Assembly (NCBI GenBank): GCA_044507735.1
Contig: JBIQJB010000001.1
Coordinates: 160,001 to 224,000, forward strand
Direction of reading: 5' to 3'
DNA from: Nitrosopumilales archaeon
GTDB taxonomy: Archaea; Thermoproteota; Nitrososphaeria; Nitrososphaerales; Nitrososphaeraceae
DNA length: 64,000 nt
The first letter of the stretch is position 1. Every line of letters starts with the position of its first letter. A program made the translations under genes and the position numbers. A model generated the notes under the pieces. The model saw only the letters and a list, made by a program, of their open reading frames with translations, searched no databases and was not told the DNA's origin. Shown here piece after piece: positions 10,804-16,898 of the stretch.

Positions 10804-11337
10804 GTGGTGGGACGAAAGGTAAAGACAATTGAAAGTGCCAGAATCTACTCTGGCGGGGTGAACCTCCGGAAGGACCGGTTTTCGCTCAACGGCAGAGTTA
10901 TTGAAAAAGATATTGTAGAACACCGAAACTCGGTCGGGATAGTGCCGGTGAGTGGAAGTGATGTCATACTTGTGACGCAGTATCGGAGGGCCGCCGACAG
11001 GACATTGCTAGAGATTCCTGCGGGCAAGATCGAGAACGGCGAAACTCCAAGGCAAGCTGCAATCCGCGAGATGGCTGAAGAAATAGGCTACTCTGGCAGG
11101 CTGAAGCCACTTCTAAAATGGTACCTCGCTCCGGGCTACTCTACCGAGCTGATGCACGTGTTTGTCGCCACAGACCTGAGAAAGATAAAACGGGGCCCAC
11201 TTGACGACGATGAGAATATCCGGATAAGGAAAATAAAGCTTGCAGCCGCCATCAAGAAATGCCTGAACGGGGAGATCCTAGACAGCAAGACTATTGCATC
11301 TCTTCTAGCCTACAGCCAGTCCGACTGCACTGGCTGA
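10804..11337 (+). CDS. NUDIX hydrolase (ADP-ribose pyrophosphatase-like)
   Basis: Nudix box GKIENGETPRQAAIREMAEEIG; QYR and LEIPAG motifs. Confidence 0.92.
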   Translation: MVGRKVKTIESARIYSGGVNLRKDRFSLNGRVIEKDIVEHRNSVGIVPVSGSDVILVTQYRRAADRTLLEIPAGKIENGETPRQAAIREMAEEIGYSGRLKPLLKWYLAPGYSTELMHVFVATDLRKIKRGPLDDDENIRIRKIKLAAAIKKCLNGEILDSKTIASLLAYSQSDCTG

Positions 11338-12296
11338 TACACCTTTTTTCTCGCGTCGTCGAGGCTGTTTCTCTCGATTATTAGGCCCTGGCGCTTGAGA
11401 TCCTCGACTGCGGCCTGCACAGTCCTCCTGGGCAGATGGCTCATGGAGACAAGCTCGGTTTGGTCTATCGGGTGTTTTGTCCTGATCACAAAATAGATGA
11501 ACTTTGCGGCAGGACCTCCCTCTGGATTTCTGCGCAGATATGATACGCCAAACGCTGACTTTGAGAGAAAGCCTCTGCGCTGCGACTCCACGGACGCGAC
11601 TGCGTCAGGGTGAACCTCTGCAAGGTTGACCCGCTGGCCAAACTCTGCAATGAGCGCAGACTGCTGTGACTCTAGTGGTGCTTCAAAGATGAATGTACTT
11701 GGAGGGTAATCGTTTGTTATCGCCCCAACAAAGCTCCACTTTACAAGCGCCTTTTCGTCATAGATTCCAACATTGACGCCTTCGTTTGCCTCAAGCACGA
11801 TTTTCTTTGACCCAATTTTTACTGCCTCCTCTATCTTTGCAAGCGTGTCGTCGATGGTGAGCTGGTGCCTTGGATCCTTCTTCCCCACCTTCCACTGAAA
11901 CTCTAATCCTGCCGACTTGATCGTGTCGCTGATCTTTCTCTTTTGATCAAATGAAAGGTCGATGCTGTTCTCCCCAACTTCGACAATGTCAAAGCCGACT
12001 GTTGCGGCCTCTCTGACAAACTTTTCCAGCGAATTCTCGGAGATGGCAAACTCTGTTATTGTACTGCCTGTCGAAACCTGTACCCCGAAGTCATGGTAGA
12101 ACTTGATCTTTTTCTTGAGGTTCTCCTCTGACATGAGCATGGGGAGCACGCCATAGATCTTGACCACGTCGATAAATTGCGCAATGGTCGAAAAGTTGTC
12201 CTTGTCAATACCTTGCAGTTTGTCCACAGTGCATGTCAGCCCCTCCTTGCGGGGCTTCTTTGCATCTACTCTATTCTTTACGAAGTCGTCAAGCAT
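11310..12296 (-). CDS. ComA (phosphosulfolactate synthase)-like TIM barrel fused to a C-terminal winged HTH
   Basis: KPRKEGLT, VGKKD, IFEAP..SQQ and FGQRVNLA ComA motifs; C-terminal DQTELVSMSHLPRRTVQAAVEDLKRQGLI...DARKKVY is a MarR-like wHTH. Confidence 0.88.
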   Translation of the reverse strand: MLDDFVKNRVDAKKPRKEGLTCTVDKLQGIDKDNFSTIAQFIDVVKIYGVLPMLMSEENLKKKIKFYHDFGVQVSTGSTITEFAISENSLEKFVREAATVGFDIVEVGENSIDLSFDQKRKISDTIKSAGLEFQWKVGKKDPRHQLTIDDTLAKIEEAVKIGSKKIVLEANEGVNVGIYDEKALVKWSFVGAITNDYPPSTFIFEAPLESQQSALIAEFGQRVNLAEVHPDAVASVESQRRGFLSKSAFGVSYLRRNPEGGPAAKFIYFVIRTKHPIDQTELVSMSHLPRRTVQAAVEDLKRQGLIIERNSLDDARKKVYQPVQSDWL

Positions 12297-12309
12297 GAAT
12301 TAGCGTGAT

Positions 12310-12330
12310 ATATGCAGATTTTGCGCATAT
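12310..12330. promoter_or_regulatory. Candidate operator between the TATA box and start of the comA-HTH gene
   Basis: ATATGCAGATTTTGCGCATAT, an imperfect palindrome; similar site at 14885-14899. Confidence 0.4.
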
Positions 12331-12367
12331 TTTAATCTGCATGTCCTAGTCCTCATCAATCAAACGA

Positions 12368-13186
12368 TTATTCGTTGTGCTGGTCCAGTCCCCATCGAGC
12401 GCTAATCTTGTCTTCGATCTTGCGGAAAATGACTCTGTCAAATACTACACCTATGACAAAGATCGTAATCATTGTGGCAATGATGTCCTCCATACTGTTG
12501 AATTCCCTTCCGATCATCAGTATGTGCCCGAGGCCATACAGCGTGGTTATCAACATCTCTGCACCAATGAGCGCGTGCCATGCGAAGGACCATGCCTGTC
12601 GGATTCCGAGTACGAGCGATGGTGTAGCTGCGGGGATCATTACGTGGCGGAACAATGCGAACCCCTTTGCACCCATGTTGCGCGCTGCTCGAAGGTATAT
12701 CGGCGGTATATTGCGGATCGAGCTGTAGGTCGTTATCATCACAGAAAACACGGAGGCCATGATGACTACGAATAATATTCCGAGATCGTTGAAACCAAAG
12801 AATATGATGGCGAATGGCACCCATGCTATGCTTGGGAATGTCAGGAGACCGACTGCGAACGAGCTCATCGTCTTGCCAAAGCCTCGAAACTTGACCATTA
12901 CAAGCCCGGCGGCTACCCCAATGCCAAGCGAGATCACAAAGCCAGCACCAAGCCTTGCCATCGTCGTCGCAATGCCGATCGGCAATGAGGAATTTGCCAC
13001 AAGGTCTCCTATTGCAGAGACGACCATCGCCGGTGAAGGCAGTAGGAACGTTGGCCAGATCCCTAGTAGGAATACAAGCTGCCATATGCCGACGAACGCC
13101 GCCAGGAACAGCGCGACATTGGCAGCGTCACTTACGTCAAAGCCACGCTTCATGGACTGCTTCCGTGCGCGTTTCTCTTCTAGCAA
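12368..13186 (-). CDS. Sulfonate/nitrate/taurine-type ABC permease (SsuC/TauC)
   Basis: LLPSP, PSIAWVP, EAA-like loop AARNMGA...VMIPAATP, LIGAEML; start TTG 13186 or ATG 13153. Confidence 0.92.
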   Translation of the reverse strand: MLEEKRARKQSMKRGFDVSDAANVALFLAAFVGIWQLVFLLGIWPTFLLPSPAMVVSAIGDLVANSSLPIGIATTMARLGAGFVISLGIGVAAGLVMVKFRGFGKTMSSFAVGLLTFPSIAWVPFAIIFFGFNDLGILFVVIMASVFSVMITTYSSIRNIPPIYLRAARNMGAKGFALFRHVMIPAATPSLVLGIRQAWSFAWHALIGAEMLITTLYGLGHILMIGREFNSMEDIIATMITIFVIGVVFDRVIFRKIEDKISARWGLDQHNE

Positions 13187-13650
13187 ATCAGAAACCCTCC
13201 GCAAGTTCTTTCTGTATTAGCATCTTGACTGTTGTGAATTTCTGTACTGCCGCAATCCCGGGTTAGTGGAAGATTTGTCGAAAACTCCCCATTGCTCTCA
13301 TTCATACTTGTAGACAGCAGCGTAGTCTTGTCTCGAAGTGAGATTTCTTCGTTGATGTTGCCAGTGGCGAGTGGGATCGTCTCCTTGACGGCCTTGTATA
13401 TCCGTATGAGTTGGTTGTGCAACAGTTCTCTTGCCTGTTGGGCAAGCGTGAATGACTCATACATCAACAGCCGTCCAGCTACCATTTTGGACGATGTGCT
13501 GTTTCGCTTGTCAGGCACACCCGCGGTCACCAAAAGCTCTCCAGCATTGACACTCGTGTTGACGATGTTCCGGACTATGGACTGCTGCTGAGACACAGGA
13601 CTTGCATGATGGAAAGCCTCGGGGATTCCGCTTACCTCCAATACTGACAT
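13180..13650 (-). pseudogene. Decayed ABC ATPase (SsuB/TauB-like)
   Basis: Eroded Walker A (GELLVTAGVPDKRNSTSSKMVAG) joined directly to an eroded Walker B (LLMYES) and H-loop (LATGNINEEI); signature region missing; natural-looking C-terminus TVKMLIQKELAEGF* in another frame. Confidence 0.7.
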
Positions 13651-13762
13651 CCTAGCCTGTCGATACCTGGTTGTCGTCAAGTTTTGCCACACTCGATTCT
13701 ATTGCACAGCATATAATCTACCCTATAGGTGCAATTGTCGCCATGTAGATGCAACTTTTGCA

Positions 13763-14824
13763 TCATTGTATCTGCTCCAATCCCTTCTTGGCAAGGACCT
13801 CATTCAGCAACCTCAAGTCGTAAATGTTTGACAGATCAGGCCTCTTGTCAAAGAATCCTATGTCAAACGCGTCATTGGCCGACTTGATCAGCGATTCCTG
13901 TACAGGATCCCATGTCAGGGTCATCCTGGAGAGTCCTTCTTTGAACTCATCTTCGGGTATGGTCTTTCCTGTGAGTCTTTCTAGCTGTGCATTAAACACA
14001 GCGATTGCTTCGTCTTGGTTTTCGTTTATCCATTGGGTTTCTGCAACATGCGCTTCCAACAGCTTGCTGATTATTTCGGGGTTCTTTTCCAGATATTCAG
14101 TCCTGGCAATAACATGTGCGGTAACAAATTCGCCTTCGGGCCAGAGCTCTCTCTCATCTAGGAAGATCCGGCCATTAGCTTCGTTGACCAGCTTTGCTCC
14201 CCAAGGCTCTGGGACCCATGCACCGTGGATCTCTTTCTTTGTCATGAGGGTGACTATGTCGCTATTTTTTGCTGGAAGTACTTCGATATTGCCACCGTTT
14301 TCTTTTGTGTTAAGGCCATTTTCAAGCAGATACTTTCTCAATGCAACATCCTGCGTGTTTCCAAGCTGGGGGGATGATAGCTTCTTGTTGGCCAAATCCT
14401 CGACCGAATTGATACCAGCGTCGTTCCTGACTACAAACACCGCGCCTCCGCTAGTTGCGCCGGAAATGATTCTGAGAGCCTTGCCGCCCGACTGCACATA
14501 GCCGTTGATCGCGGGGTTTGGACCGATGTAAGTCACGTCGATCTGATTAGCAAATAACGCCTCGATGGCAGAAGGGCCCGCATTGAATACCTGAGTTCTC
14601 ACTTCAATGTCGTCGCCAAGAGCTTTTTGAAAGTCGCCATTACCAAGGCCAATGACCGCCTGTGCATGATTGATGTTTGGGAAATATCCAATCCTCAGAA
14701 CTTTTGATTTTGCTTCTGAACCGCCGTTGCTTCCAGCAAGCGATAATCCTAGTGTAGGTATTGAAGTCAAAATGACTGCGATGATTATTGCTGCAGTAAT
14801 CCCTACCTTGATCCTATTATCCAT
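13763..14824 (-). CDS. Aliphatic sulfonate-type ABC substrate-binding protein (SsuA-like)
   Basis: N-terminal anchor; LRIGYFPNINHAQA, FNAGP, YIGPNPAING, PQLGNTQDVALR, WVPEPW. Confidence 0.93.
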   Translation of the reverse strand: MDNRIKVGITAAIIIAVILTSIPTLGLSLAGSNGGSEAKSKVLRIGYFPNINHAQAVIGLGNGDFQKALGDDIEVRTQVFNAGPSAIEALFANQIDVTYIGPNPAINGYVQSGGKALRIISGATSGGAVFVVRNDAGINSVEDLANKKLSSPQLGNTQDVALRKYLLENGLNTKENGGNIEVLPAKNSDIVTLMTKKEIHGAWVPEPWGAKLVNEANGRIFLDERELWPEGEFVTAHVIARTEYLEKNPEIISKLLEAHVAETQWINENQDEAIAVFNAQLERLTGKTIPEDEFKEGLSRMTLTWDPVQESLIKSANDAFDIGFFDKRPDLSNIYDLRLLNEVLAKKGLEQIQ

Positions 14825-14882
14825 GGCGGATGTGATACATGCGCTATTTAATACTGCTTTTAATCATGCAAAAAACGGGTAT

Positions 14883-14900
14883 TATGTGCAAAATGCGCAA
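14883..14900. promoter_or_regulatory. Candidate operator upstream of the ssuA-like gene
   Basis: TGTGCA-AAA-TGCGCA near-palindrome ~60 nt upstream of the start; resembles the 12310-12330 site. Confidence 0.35.
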
Positions 14901-15104
14901 GGAACCACTACTACAAGACGCAACAATAGCATATGACATGAAATGGGCCTGAAGCTGTTGCAAGTTTACATATCATGATTGCGAGTGTCATGCAGGCACC
15001 GCACAATACGTCCGACTTGTATCGTACATTCAAACGATCTGTCCAATGAACCATGCAGAATACCTTGGACTTTCTGAAAATCGTACAGGGCTATGGTTTG
15101 AACA

Positions 15105-16898
15105 TCATGCCGTTTCTGTGTCATGTGAGTGAACCTTTCTCAGGACATCGTGTACCTGATTGCGGAAGAGTGTGAGCCCGATTCTGCGTGCATATGGCTG
15201 GCCTTTCGCGAACGATTCTGCGAGGTTGGTTACAAAATCCATTTCGACCTTTGGAGGCATCGGGGGCTCGAACGGATCCACATACGCTTCTATTATCGTG
15301 GGTTTTTTCTCCCGCATAGCTTGGCTTATTACTGTCCTCACTTCTGCTGGATCATTTACCGAGTAACCTCTGCCACCACAACTTTCAGCAAATGCAGAGA
15401 AGTCTATCGGGGTAAATTCGACACCGTATTCTGGATTGCCGAGGAATGCCATCTGCTCCCACCTGATCATTCCAAGCGTATTATTCTTGATTATCACAAC
15501 TTTTATCGGTAGGTTATATTGCACGGCCGTTGCAAATTCGGCCATCAGCATGGAAAAGCCGCCGTCGCCTACAAACGCAATGCATTGCTTGTCTGGGTAC
15601 GCAATCTGGGCTGCTATTGCGTACGGCAGACCGCAGGCCATGCTTGCAAGCGTGCCAGAGAGCGAAAACTTCATGCCACGGCGTAGCTGAATGTATTGCG
15701 CGGCCCAGATTGTGTTTGTACCGCTGTCCACTGAAATTATCGCATTGTCCTGCAGTTCTTCAGATACTGCGGCTGCGATCACCTGTGGTTTGATCGGCTT
15801 GTCAGTTCTGCTGCTGCGCTCCCTGAGGAGGCCCATCCAGTCTTTCATGGCTCTTTGTCTTGACTGCAAAAAATCGCGGTTTTCCTTGTGCTTCAGCAGC
15901 GGGAGAAGCATGGACAACGTGGTTTTAGAGTCGCCTACCAGGCCAGTTTCTACAGGATATCGCAGACCAATTTTCTCGGGCAGGAGGTCAATCTGGACTC
16001 CTCTTGCTTGGCCGGGTTTGGGCAGGTAGTCAATGTAAGGAAACGAAGTTCCCACCATCAATAGCGTATCTGCCTGCTCCATAGCGTCGGTAGCCGGCTC
16101 CGTCCCCAGCATCCCTATGCCTCCAAGATTGTTTGGGTGGTCGTCAGAAACTACCGCCTTTCCTAGCAGTGCCTTGACTATTGGCGCACCCAGCCTCTCA
16201 GACACCGCCTCGACTTCTGCGCCAGCTCTCAGTGCACCCTGTCCGACAAGCATTACCACCCTTTCGCCTGCATTGAGGATATCCGCTGCTTTCTTTACCA
16301 TCACAGGATCGGGTACAACACAGGACGCAAATACATCTGAGGTATGACCTGCGACCTTGTGCCGCGAGTACCTGCCACTCAACCTCTTTTCCTGAACGTC
16401 TATTGGGATGGTCAGGTGGCTTACACCGCGCCTAGAAATTGCAGTCCGGCATGCAATGTCGACGGCCATCTCTGCATGCTCTGGGCTGTTTATCATATTG
16501 TTATAAACAGAAACGTCTGAAAAGAGATGAACAAGGTTGACGTCCTGCTGGTAGTTTGAGCCTATCATGTCAGAGTATGTGGTACCTGTTATGGCAATAA
16601 CAGGCGTGTTGTCGGCCTTGGCATCGTATAGACCTGTCAGAAGATGTATGGCACCCGGTCCCGATGTTGCTACACATGCCCCCAGCTTGCCTGTGTATTT
16701 TGCATAGGCACATGCCATGAACGCAGCTGATTCCTCGTGGCGAACCAGCACAAATTTTATCTTGTCCTTACGGCGTCTGAGCGCCTCGATAAATCCATTG
16801 ATACCGTCTCCTGGGAGCCCGAACATTACTTCCACTCCCCAATCGAGCAGCGATTCTGCTACAATGTCAGCCGTGCTAGCTCCTTCATCTACAACCAT
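15105..16898 (-). CDS. TPP-dependent enzyme, pyruvate oxidase/PoxB-like
   Basis: FGLPGDGIN, VRHEESAAF, TSGPGAIHLLTGLYDA and the TPP motif GDGGFSM...NN. Confidence 0.9.
   Translation of the reverse strand: MVVDEGASTADIVAESLLDWGVEVMFGLPGDGINGFIEALRRRKDKIKFVLVRHEESAAFMACAYAKYTGKLGACVATSGPGAIHLLTGLYDAKADNTPVIAITGTTYSDMIGSNYQQDVNLVHLFSDVSVYNNMINSPEHAEMAVDIACRTAISRRGVSHLTIPIDVQEKRLSGRYSRHKVAGHTSDVFASCVVPDPVMVKKAADILNAGERVVMLVGQGALRAGAEVEAVSERLGAPIVKALLGKAVVSDDHPNNLGGIGMLGTEPATDAMEQADTLLMVGTSFPYIDYLPKPGQARGVQIDLLPEKIGLRYPVETGLVGDSKTTLSMLLPLLKHKENRDFLQSRQRAMKDWMGLLRERSSRTDKPIKPQVIAAAVSEELQDNAIISVDSGTNTIWAAQYIQLRRGMKFSLSGTLASMACGLPYAIAAQIAYPDKQCIAFVGDGGFSMLMAEFATAVQYNLPIKVVIIKNNTLGMIRWEQMAFLGNPEYGVEFTPIDFSAFAESCGGRGYSVNDPAEVRTVISQAMREKKPTIIEAYVDPFEPPMPPKVEMDFVTNLAESFAKGQPYARRIGLTLFRNQVHDVLRKVHSHDTETA

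Follow-up and report, generated by a model that had tools for sequence, protein, structure and literature searches.

Enzyme-derived regulators and the ComA family

Several described systems resemble parts of the protein considered here, whose gene lies in a 64,000-nt stretch of DNA from a Nitrosopumilales archaeon (contig JBIQJB010000001.1, positions 160,001 to 224,000; called the window in what follows) and joins a barrel of the phosphosulfolactate synthase (ComA) family to a winged helix-turn-helix (wHTH) domain. ComA of M. jannaschii (1qwg), YitD of B. subtilis (1u83) and the bacterial XcbB share with this barrel their Pfam family, their (beta/alpha)8 fold and many of the residues at the strand ends. 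XcbB is reported to have phosphosulfolactate synthase activity (PMC9457059). Unlike plain ComA, the fusion carries a supplementary C-terminal wHTH of 80 aa, and its gene is linked to transporter genes and not to pathway genes. The use of a ComA-family protein outside coenzyme M (CoM) synthesis is also exemplified by plant HSA32, a homologue with a non-enzymatic role which is reported to act with HSP101 and, unlike the fusion, is devoid of a DNA-binding domain.

Among regulators, RbkR of archaea, including Thaumarchaeota, combines a wHTH with a riboflavin kinase and regulates biosynthesis genes, transporters and itself; together with BirA, NadR and PutA, it is classed by those who described it among the 'trigger enzymes' (PMC5397151). 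Compared with RbkR as described there, the fusion is alike in that a wHTH is joined to a sensor derived from a metabolic enzyme and in that the predicted regulon comprises its own gene and an uptake system. The order of the domains is reversed, the wHTH being C-terminal in the fusion, and the sensor is a TIM barrel that is probably trimeric, whereas RbkR is a dimer. Moreover, RbkR is reported to retain its substrate residues and its activity, whereas the catalytic signature is lost from the sequences of the window's clade. MarR/SlyA repressors share with the fusion the DNA-reading fold (root-mean-square deviation 0.9-1.7 A, TMq up to 0.85), with a weak sequence match, as well as a gene divergent from its likely target and an inverted repeat in its own promoter. 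Unlike them, the fusion possesses neither N- nor C-terminal dimerisation helices, its proposed sensing would take place in a separate barrel of 250 aa, and its MarR_2 match remains below the cut-off.

The evidence presented below tips slightly towards the ComA-wHTH fusion being an enzyme-derived one-component regulator that senses a sulfur-related molecule in a rebuilt pocket and controls its own promoter and the neighbouring SsuA operon. This reading is carried by the folds, the identity of the domains, the fixed residue replacements, the gene linkage, a shared promoter element and the fact that genes of the CoM pathway were not found. Sensors derived from enzymes are already known as a kind; the literature searched contains no description of one built on a ComA barrel, probably as a trimer. 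No publication on a ComA-wHTH fusion or on a ComA-barrel sensor was found in that literature, whose coverage leaves out most subscription journals, nor was any found there that joins phosphosulfolactate synthase with Nitrososphaera.

To our knowledge, very little is known of how ammonia-oxidising archaea regulate their genes, and no routine genetics is available for them. The family offers a specific and testable set of regulator, operator and targets in these organisms. If the proposal is true, it would represent their first known sulfur-responsive regulator, and the ComA barrel would be added to the few enzyme folds that transcription factors are known to have adopted as sensors.

Architecture and catalytic face of the fusion protein

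The fusion gene (11310-12296, minus strand) is a single open reading frame of 328 aa and the sole match to PF02679 across the host genome (E 5e-69, 232.9 bits against a cut-off of 25.2, residues 12-244). The matched residues form a ComA-type (beta/alpha)8 barrel with a remodelled catalytic face (11565-12263, minus strand), as seen in a full-length AlphaFold2 (AF2) model built on a 97-row alignment (pLDDT 91). In Foldseek, this model matches 1qwg best (E 6.3e-21, TMt 0.85), ahead of a designed particle derived from ComA and of B. subtilis YitD, and HMMER aligns the protein to 1qwg at E 9.6e-33 with 32% identity. The score against TIGR03849, the equivalog model of archaeal ComA, is 169 bits, below the 280-bit cut-off, and a search of the ESM Atlas returned the protein's own family cluster only. 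An earlier note on this DNA, made from its letters, had recognised the ComA fold and a C-terminal MarR-like wHTH, and had opposed canonical ComA motifs to those of the fusion. Both recognitions hold, and all the motif pairs are correct in the alignment to 1qwg (1qwg/fusion: KFGWGT/KIYGVL, PGGT/TGST, EISDG/EVGEN, TEVGKK/WKVGKK, EGRESG/EANEG, LRGDT/FLSKS). An artefact of gene calling is ruled out as the origin of the fusion, the full-length frame being present in 119 of the 120 relatives listed and at 45 places in the genomes sampled.

The C-terminal tail of the barrel leads directly into a flexible linker of residues about 245-261 (11514-11564, minus strand), where pLDDT drops to 64-66 and falls below 50 at residues 249-254, the low-confidence stretch of the AF2 model covering residues 241-260. 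A MarR-type wHTH then occupies residues 262-322 (11331-11513, minus strand). The last 74 residues were modelled alone from 21 sequences and adopt a MarR-type wHTH with topology H-b-H-H-b-b at pLDDT 93, so that one outcome named by the earlier note as refuting its proposal, a domain failing to model as a wHTH, did not occur. Foldseek returns 24 matches to this domain at E <= 0.001, including DNA-bound MarR-family proteins, with TMq of 0.65-0.85 against the MepR-DNA complex 5fb2, 4mnu, 3bpv and ST1710; the alignment spans just the wHTH part of the MarR chains (TMt 0.36-0.47). A profile of the domain finds the SlyA-like regulator 4mnu at E 3.9e-5, and the LPRRTVQ block of the third, or recognition, helix is invariant or nearly so in the 21 sequences, which are 42-97% identical. 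The Pfam MarR score of the protein is 14.5 against a cut-off of 24.6, and a weak MarR_2/TrmB-like stretch at residues 267-324 also lies under the Pfam cut-offs.

A homologue of this wHTH is found outside the window in a 335-aa NAD kinase of the host genome (PF20143 E 1.8e-24, and PF01513; G000:C24, L044 3742-4749, minus strand), again at the C-terminus. Matches to the wHTH only occur in frames of ~340 aa in most genomes of the order, including families that lack the ComA fusion, and the host genome additionally has a plain NAD-kinase-like frame of 286 aa. The NAD kinase-wHTH proteins may represent a second and wider enzyme-plus-wHTH family of these archaea.

The catalytic face was compared column by column over 71 unfused and 21 fused ComA rows, using seven signature positions chosen by their conservation in the family and placed by the DSSP strand ends of the AF2 model. 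In plain ComA, the positions numbered 78, 108, 136, 171, 227, 244 and 248 in the window protein are near-invariant as G, S, E, R, N, R and T. The window protein reads SGKNELA instead of GSERNRT, none of the seven being kept, which bears out the earlier note's view that the active-site motifs are changed. All seven are changed in its two nearest representatives too (S, G, K, N, E, L/P, A across the three), and positions 27, 50, 51, 110 and 239 of the window protein likewise differ from the family. Of the 67 plain ComA rows outside the fusion clade, 48 retain the full set and none shows more than four changes. Within the fused rows, the seven residues are all kept in 8/21 and a single one is changed in 3/21.

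The replacements are themselves conserved. In the window's subclade (137 sequences, 51-100% identity), S78, K136, N171 and E227 are invariant and G108 is found in 132/137, while positions 244 and 248 vary. Kept and invariant in the same 137 sequences are K14, R16, D25, D43, K46, G77, T79, E82, E106, G138, E169, E205, Q212 and R240, and K140 is retained in 134 of them. According to DSSP, the signature and retained positions lie at the C-terminal ends of the barrel strands or in the tail past the last helix, and the C-terminal strand-end face is where TIM-barrel enzymes bind their substrates. As the replacements are fixed and other residues of this face are retained, the pocket is re-specified or rebuilt and not decayed, and on its residues it could still catalyse something.

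The earlier note had proposed a sulfur-sensing regulator built on a catalytically dead ComA domain. The regulator is favoured by the wHTH, the linkage to SsuABC, the promoter element, the CoM genes not found and the replaced residues. The adjective 'dead' does not stand as worded, since the catalytic face keeps ~15 other conserved residues and its replacements are fixed.

The earlier note had also seen no comB, comC or comDE gene in the window, which proves right and extends to the genome: no match to ComB (PF04029), to the ComC family (PF02615) or to ComD (TIGR03845) was found in the host genome, which is 97.1% complete, ComE not having been searched. ComB occurs in only 1/151 genomes sampled from the order Nitrososphaerales, and this genome lacks the fusion. 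The sources mostly name the relatives of the fusion, including one from Candidatus Nitrososphaera gargensis, phosphosulfolactate synthase, an annotation that wrongly implies CoM or sulfolactate synthesis where the searches recovered no other part of the pathway and that is corrected here. An ordinary phosphosulfolactate synthase, making phosphosulfolactate or sulfolactate for another use and carrying a non-regulatory domain such as a protein-protein or localisation module, would agree with this naming, with the strong PF02679 match and with the ComA fold and trimer-like model of the protein. It is nevertheless highly improbable. The TIGR03849 score is 169 versus 280 bits, seven of seven signature residues are changed versus at most four in any plain ComA row, three families of the CoM pathway are missing from the genome searches, and the additional domain models well as a MarR-type wHTH, whose recognition helix is invariant. 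Furthermore, an ordinary synthase would explain neither the promoter motif in common nor the divergent placement of the fusion and transporter genes.

A second way to account for a conserved pocket, and the main rival to a regulator devoted to sensing, is a bifunctional trigger enzyme in which an altered C-S chemistry would act on a substrate related to SsuA import while the wHTH relays occupancy to transcription. As candidate reactions, a C3 sulfonate, phosphorylated or free, could lose sulfite in the reverse of the ComA reaction, or sulfite could be added to a different enol. We regard such an enzyme as unlikely. The strand-end residues K46, E82, E106, K140, E169, E172 and E205 retained as invariant speak for it, as do replacements that are fixed and not drifting, the canonical residues of 8/21 fused representatives and the canonical copy at locus L039, which is also paired with SsuABC. 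So does the precedent of RbkR, described as an active enzyme with a wHTH (PMC5397151). The host genome encodes a sulfonate-type binding protein but no match to TauD was found in it and no true SsuD (best SsuD-model score 71.8 against a cut-off of 518.2 bits, with distant SsuD-like proteins only), so that a desulfonating activity is unaccounted for. On the other hand, the conserved arginines 171 and 244, the 94%-conserved glutamate 136 and the asparagine 227 are all replaced, which speaks against anionic substrates and a metal site in common with ComA. The neighbourhood of the fusion gene shows no evident kinase or phosphatase partner, and SsuABC is widespread without the fusion protein.

The proposed regulator would couple the barrel to the wHTH through its quaternary structure. 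A three-copy model of the fusion protein scored 0.85 versus 0.00 for the best of three controls, and its runs share at least 73% of their contacts with a partner pLDDT of at least 82. The score mark is reached by 20/30 proteins whose solved structure pairs two copies of one chain and by 1/23 solved as single chains, in a calibration made with two copies whereas the present job used three. As a ComA trimer has been solved and the model may simply reproduce it, this pass shows likeness only. In the modelled interface, residues 230-249, including 243-247 and 249 of the tail, contact residues 26-31, 48-57, 79-80, 140-141 and 171-172 of the next copy, which would place the replaced positions 27, 50, 51, 171 and 244 in or at the subunit interface. 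The wHTH lies outside every interface of the trimer model, and the tail leads directly into the linker and the wHTH. This arrangement suggests that pocket occupancy could move the DNA-binding domains via tail and linker.

A plausible mechanism can be drawn from this model. The barrel would assemble as a ComA-like trimer with each ligand pocket at a subunit interface, closed by the C-terminal tail of the neighbouring subunit. As this tail is continued by the linker and the wHTH, the latter would be repositioned when the pocket takes up a small anion that is a sulfur or C3 metabolite. Sulfite, sulfonates such as sulfolactate, phosphoenolpyruvate (PEP) and phosphosulfolactate are the candidate ligands. 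Sulfite reductase and ATP sulfurylase genes are present in the host genome, sulfite being therefore an internal intermediate; a frame resembling 3'-phosphoadenosine 5'-phosphosulfate (PAPS) reductase adjoins the ATP sulfurylase gene. TGCR-N5-TGCR would be the element recognised by the wHTH, both before the fusion gene itself, where it stands between the TATA-like box and the start, and in the promoter region that serves the SsuA-(ATPase)-SsuC genes, and transporter expression would thereby be tied to sulfur status. DNA binding, the ligand, the sign of the regulation, the coupling through the trimer and the loss of synthase activity are what we infer here. Taken in its strongest form, as an undescribed class of archaeal transcription factor in which a trimeric ComA barrel is an allosteric sensor of sulfite or sulfonate and its tail drives three winged helices onto TGCR-N5-TGCR, the proposal is a tentative one, with somewhat more to be said against than for it.

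Distribution of the fusion and its linkage to transporter genes

A word-index search returned 960 relatives and, among the 120 listed, 119 are full-length with 68-100% identity. The earlier note had proposed surveying the ComA-plus-HTH architecture and its neighbourhood across Nitrososphaerales. In counts tallied by hand from search tables, matches of at least 300 residues were found at 45 places in 37/151 sampled genomes of the order, eight of them holding two copies. The fusion is present in 18/23 other sampled genomes of the window's family, Nitrososphaeraceae, and several other families of the order carry it at 28-45% identity. In a sample of the whole phylum (301 genomes, E <= 1e-8), matches were limited to the host genome and one unfused homologue of 265 aa, the fusion being absent from the 300 other genomes and, within this sample, from all 43 of family f13. 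An exhaustive HMMER search recovered fused forms of 304-340 aa with identities down to 27%.

In a tree of the barrel only (92 rows), 20/21 fused rows group with four short rows in one clade with SH-aLRT support of 99, and the fusion thus looks like a single old event in the ComA family. As the canonical set is intact in 8/21 fused representatives, the fusion arose before the residues were replaced. The clade would have begun as a probable trigger enzyme, an active ComA with a wHTH, whose pocket was re-specified in the Nitrososphaeraceae branch; to judge from the residues, the dead-sensor state, if real, would be a later step inside a clade of probable trigger enzymes. Members with kept and with replaced signatures in one clade constitute a natural series from trigger enzyme to pure sensor. 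If the reading is true, a single clade preserves the path from an active enzyme with canonical residues to a sensor with a re-specified pocket.

The fusion gene often lies near an SsuA-type transporter, also among deeply diverged copies. In the order sample, again counted by hand, an SsuA match (E <= 1e-30) lies within 5 kb of 26/45 full-length copies. In the 20 loci fetched from 13 genomes, SsuA and SsuC adjoin the fusion gene in 15, and in 10 of these 15 the fusion and SsuA genes stand head to head, 100-330 bp apart, as is typical for regulator genes and their targets. The head-to-head loci include L039, a locus from another family (43% identity) with an intact SsuA-SsuB-SsuC set and the canonical signature. 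The fusion gene comes after SsuC in the window and in the locus most closely related to it. SsuA homologues occur in 76/151 genomes of the order, far more widely than the fusion, which therefore appears as an accessory of the transporter and not as a required subunit.

Some copies show other arrangements. At L040 (3116-6280, G054:C6), a copy with 42% identity and the change E136 to A is not accompanied by SsuA and diverges from an operon of ATP sulfurylase, type I phosphodiesterase and adenosine 5'-phosphosulfate (APS) kinase, a further link with sulfur metabolism. In genus g2 (L033, L035, L037), the fusion gene belongs to a co-oriented array with two SsuA and one or two SsuC matches, and a second fusion paralogue is located elsewhere beside small glyoxalase-like and SRPBCC-like genes, labels judged by eye. 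At G137:C10:13086-13343, ~1.5 kb from SsuA, two in-frame stops interrupt a fragment that corresponds to residues 233-318 of the fusion protein; it resembles the decayed remains of a copy beside the transporter, an intact copy being located on another contig.

In the window, four co-oriented features follow one another on the minus strand: SsuA, a 170-aa frame, SsuC and, past a 71-bp gap, the fusion gene. The earlier note had placed the fusion gene downstream of co-oriented SsuA- and SsuC-like genes, correctly so, and had overlooked the frame between them. The SsuA-family periplasmic binding protein (13763-14824, minus strand, 353 aa) scores 201.2 bits against TIGR01728, above the cut-off of 163.5, and matches NMT1_2 at E 2.2e-32. 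Its gene is present as a single copy in the host genome at E <= 1e-5. The closest solved relatives of the protein are the taurine-binding TauA (6ssy, E 1.1e-6) and NrtA (E 2e-4). The SsuC/SaoP-like ABC permease (12368-13204, minus strand, 278 aa, PF00528 E 2.6e-14) stays under the equivalog cut-offs, with 134 vs 295 bits for SaoP (NF040733) and 100.9 vs 347 bits for SsuC (NF008470).

The 170-aa frame (13180-13692, minus strand) is the remnant of an ABC ATPase. It aligns to residues 174-252 of an intact relative of 274 aa (43% identity, E 5e-15) and faintly to residues 35-72, the ~100 aa between the two aligned stretches being gone. Its P-loop is lost (GVPDKRNST vs GTSGCGKST in the relative), and no Pfam match was obtained for it. 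At the orthologous locus L022, whose fusion protein is 92% identical, the ATPase is intact with 279 aa; at the orthologous loci L024, L026 and L027, no ATPase stands between SsuA and SsuC. An assembly artefact is ruled out, contigs from other studies crossing the stretch without gaps, and the remnant is hence a real allele. Orphan genes for SsuB-like ATPases are located elsewhere in the genome, at G000:C55:4384-5313, beside a cation-efflux gene, and at G000:C46:2056-2853, and these two could serve SsuA-SsuC in trans.

The assignment of the transporter bears on the nature of the signal. The NitT/TauT family also takes up nitrate, bicarbonate and vitamin precursors, and a regulator whose main targets or signal are not related to sulfur can be envisaged, the SsuA system importing a substrate other than a sulfonate and the barrel perhaps sensing a central metabolite such as PEP. 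Such a regulator would fit an SsuA-family assignment drawn from a broad subfamily model, a permease below both equivalog cut-offs, closest solved relatives that are just TauA and NrtA at E 1e-6 and 2e-4, and a genome in which the desulfonation enzymes TauD and true SsuD were not found. It is considered distinctly improbable, as the TIGR01728 cut-off is passed by SsuA, the sensor descends from a sulfite-using enzyme and the copy at L040 pairs with ATP sulfurylase and APS kinase genes.

Promoter elements and weight of the evidence

For the sulfur-related regulator favoured here, the presumed operators lie in two promoter regions of the window. That of the fusion gene (12297-12367) contains a perfect 9-nt inverted repeat, ATGCAGATT-N13-AATCTGCAT (12312-12320 and 12334-12342), which flanks an AT-rich TATA-like box, as well as the site TGCA-N5-TGCG at 12313-12325. 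In that of the SsuA gene (14825-15104), TGCR-N5-TGCR stands at 14887-14899 and at 14991-15003, and the start codon is preceded by a conserved TTTTTTGCATGATTAAAAGCAGTATTAA block common to the window, L022, L023, L025 and L028. Ten loci share a conserved block ATATGCAG-N4/5-TGCGCATATTTT, which follows the TATA-like box and precedes the start codon at a constant distance. Nine divergent intergenic regions, 1,186 bp in all, contain 13 copies of TGCR-N5-TGCR, eight of the nine holding at least one; elsewhere in those loci, 56 occurrences are spread over 126,823 bp, and 11 fall within 13,991 bp of other non-coding DNA. Among 128 patterns of like form, it ranks first. The form TGCANNNNNTGCR was set aside, its 22 matches across the window, against nine expected and with palindromes counted twice, making it too loose for use alone.

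In the host genome, core TGCR-N5-TGCR sites number 783, with a single cluster of at least three sites, which looks coding. A stricter pattern is fitted by 14 sites, none of them convincingly upstream of a sulfur gene, and the genome scan located no motif site upstream of the PAPS-reductase-like/ATP sulfurylase or sulfite reductase loci. A look-up of RNA data sets carrying the DNA of this locus listed none, which bears neither way on its expression.

Several observations weigh against the proposed regulator. Regarding the operator, the motif was picked post hoc from loci that are related to each other, part of the conserved block may be mere core promoter, and the genome scan yielded no other target that convinces. 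Three-fold symmetry in the sensor also goes oddly with an inverted-repeat operator. Regarding the DNA-binding domain, the MarR_2-like stretch at residues 267-316 reaches 24.2 bits against the Pfam cut-off of 27, the wHTH has no MarR dimerisation helices, only about 74 aa being available past the barrel, and similar winged helices are also used by RNA polymerase III subunits, which appear among the profile and Foldseek matches. Regarding the pocket, the retention of about 15 other conserved catalytic-face residues, invariant in the 137-member subclade, indicates a fixed pocket that fits catalysis equally as well as sensing, and the canonical set kept in 8/21 fused representatives means that the fusion alone is not evidence of lost activity. 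Finally, 19/45 copies have no SsuA within 5 kb, several of these being second copies or on short contigs; in family f13, 23/23 genomes have SsuA homologues and all lack the fusion; and, the transporter's own ATPase being a remnant in the window, the regulated system may be impaired.

The genes on both sides of the locus were also considered. A NUDIX hydrolase gene (10804-11337, plus strand) converges on the fusion gene with a 28-bp overlap of the 3' ends, a pairing retained in 5/20 fetched loci. The fusion protein is named 'MutT' in two database entries, probably by a mix-up with this neighbour. Directly upstream of the SsuA promoter, 15105-16898 (minus strand) encodes a thiamine-diphosphate enzyme of 597 aa of the pyruvate oxidase/acetolactate synthase type, with three TPP_enzyme domains. 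Elsewhere, this gene adjoins the locus only in the closest relative, L022.

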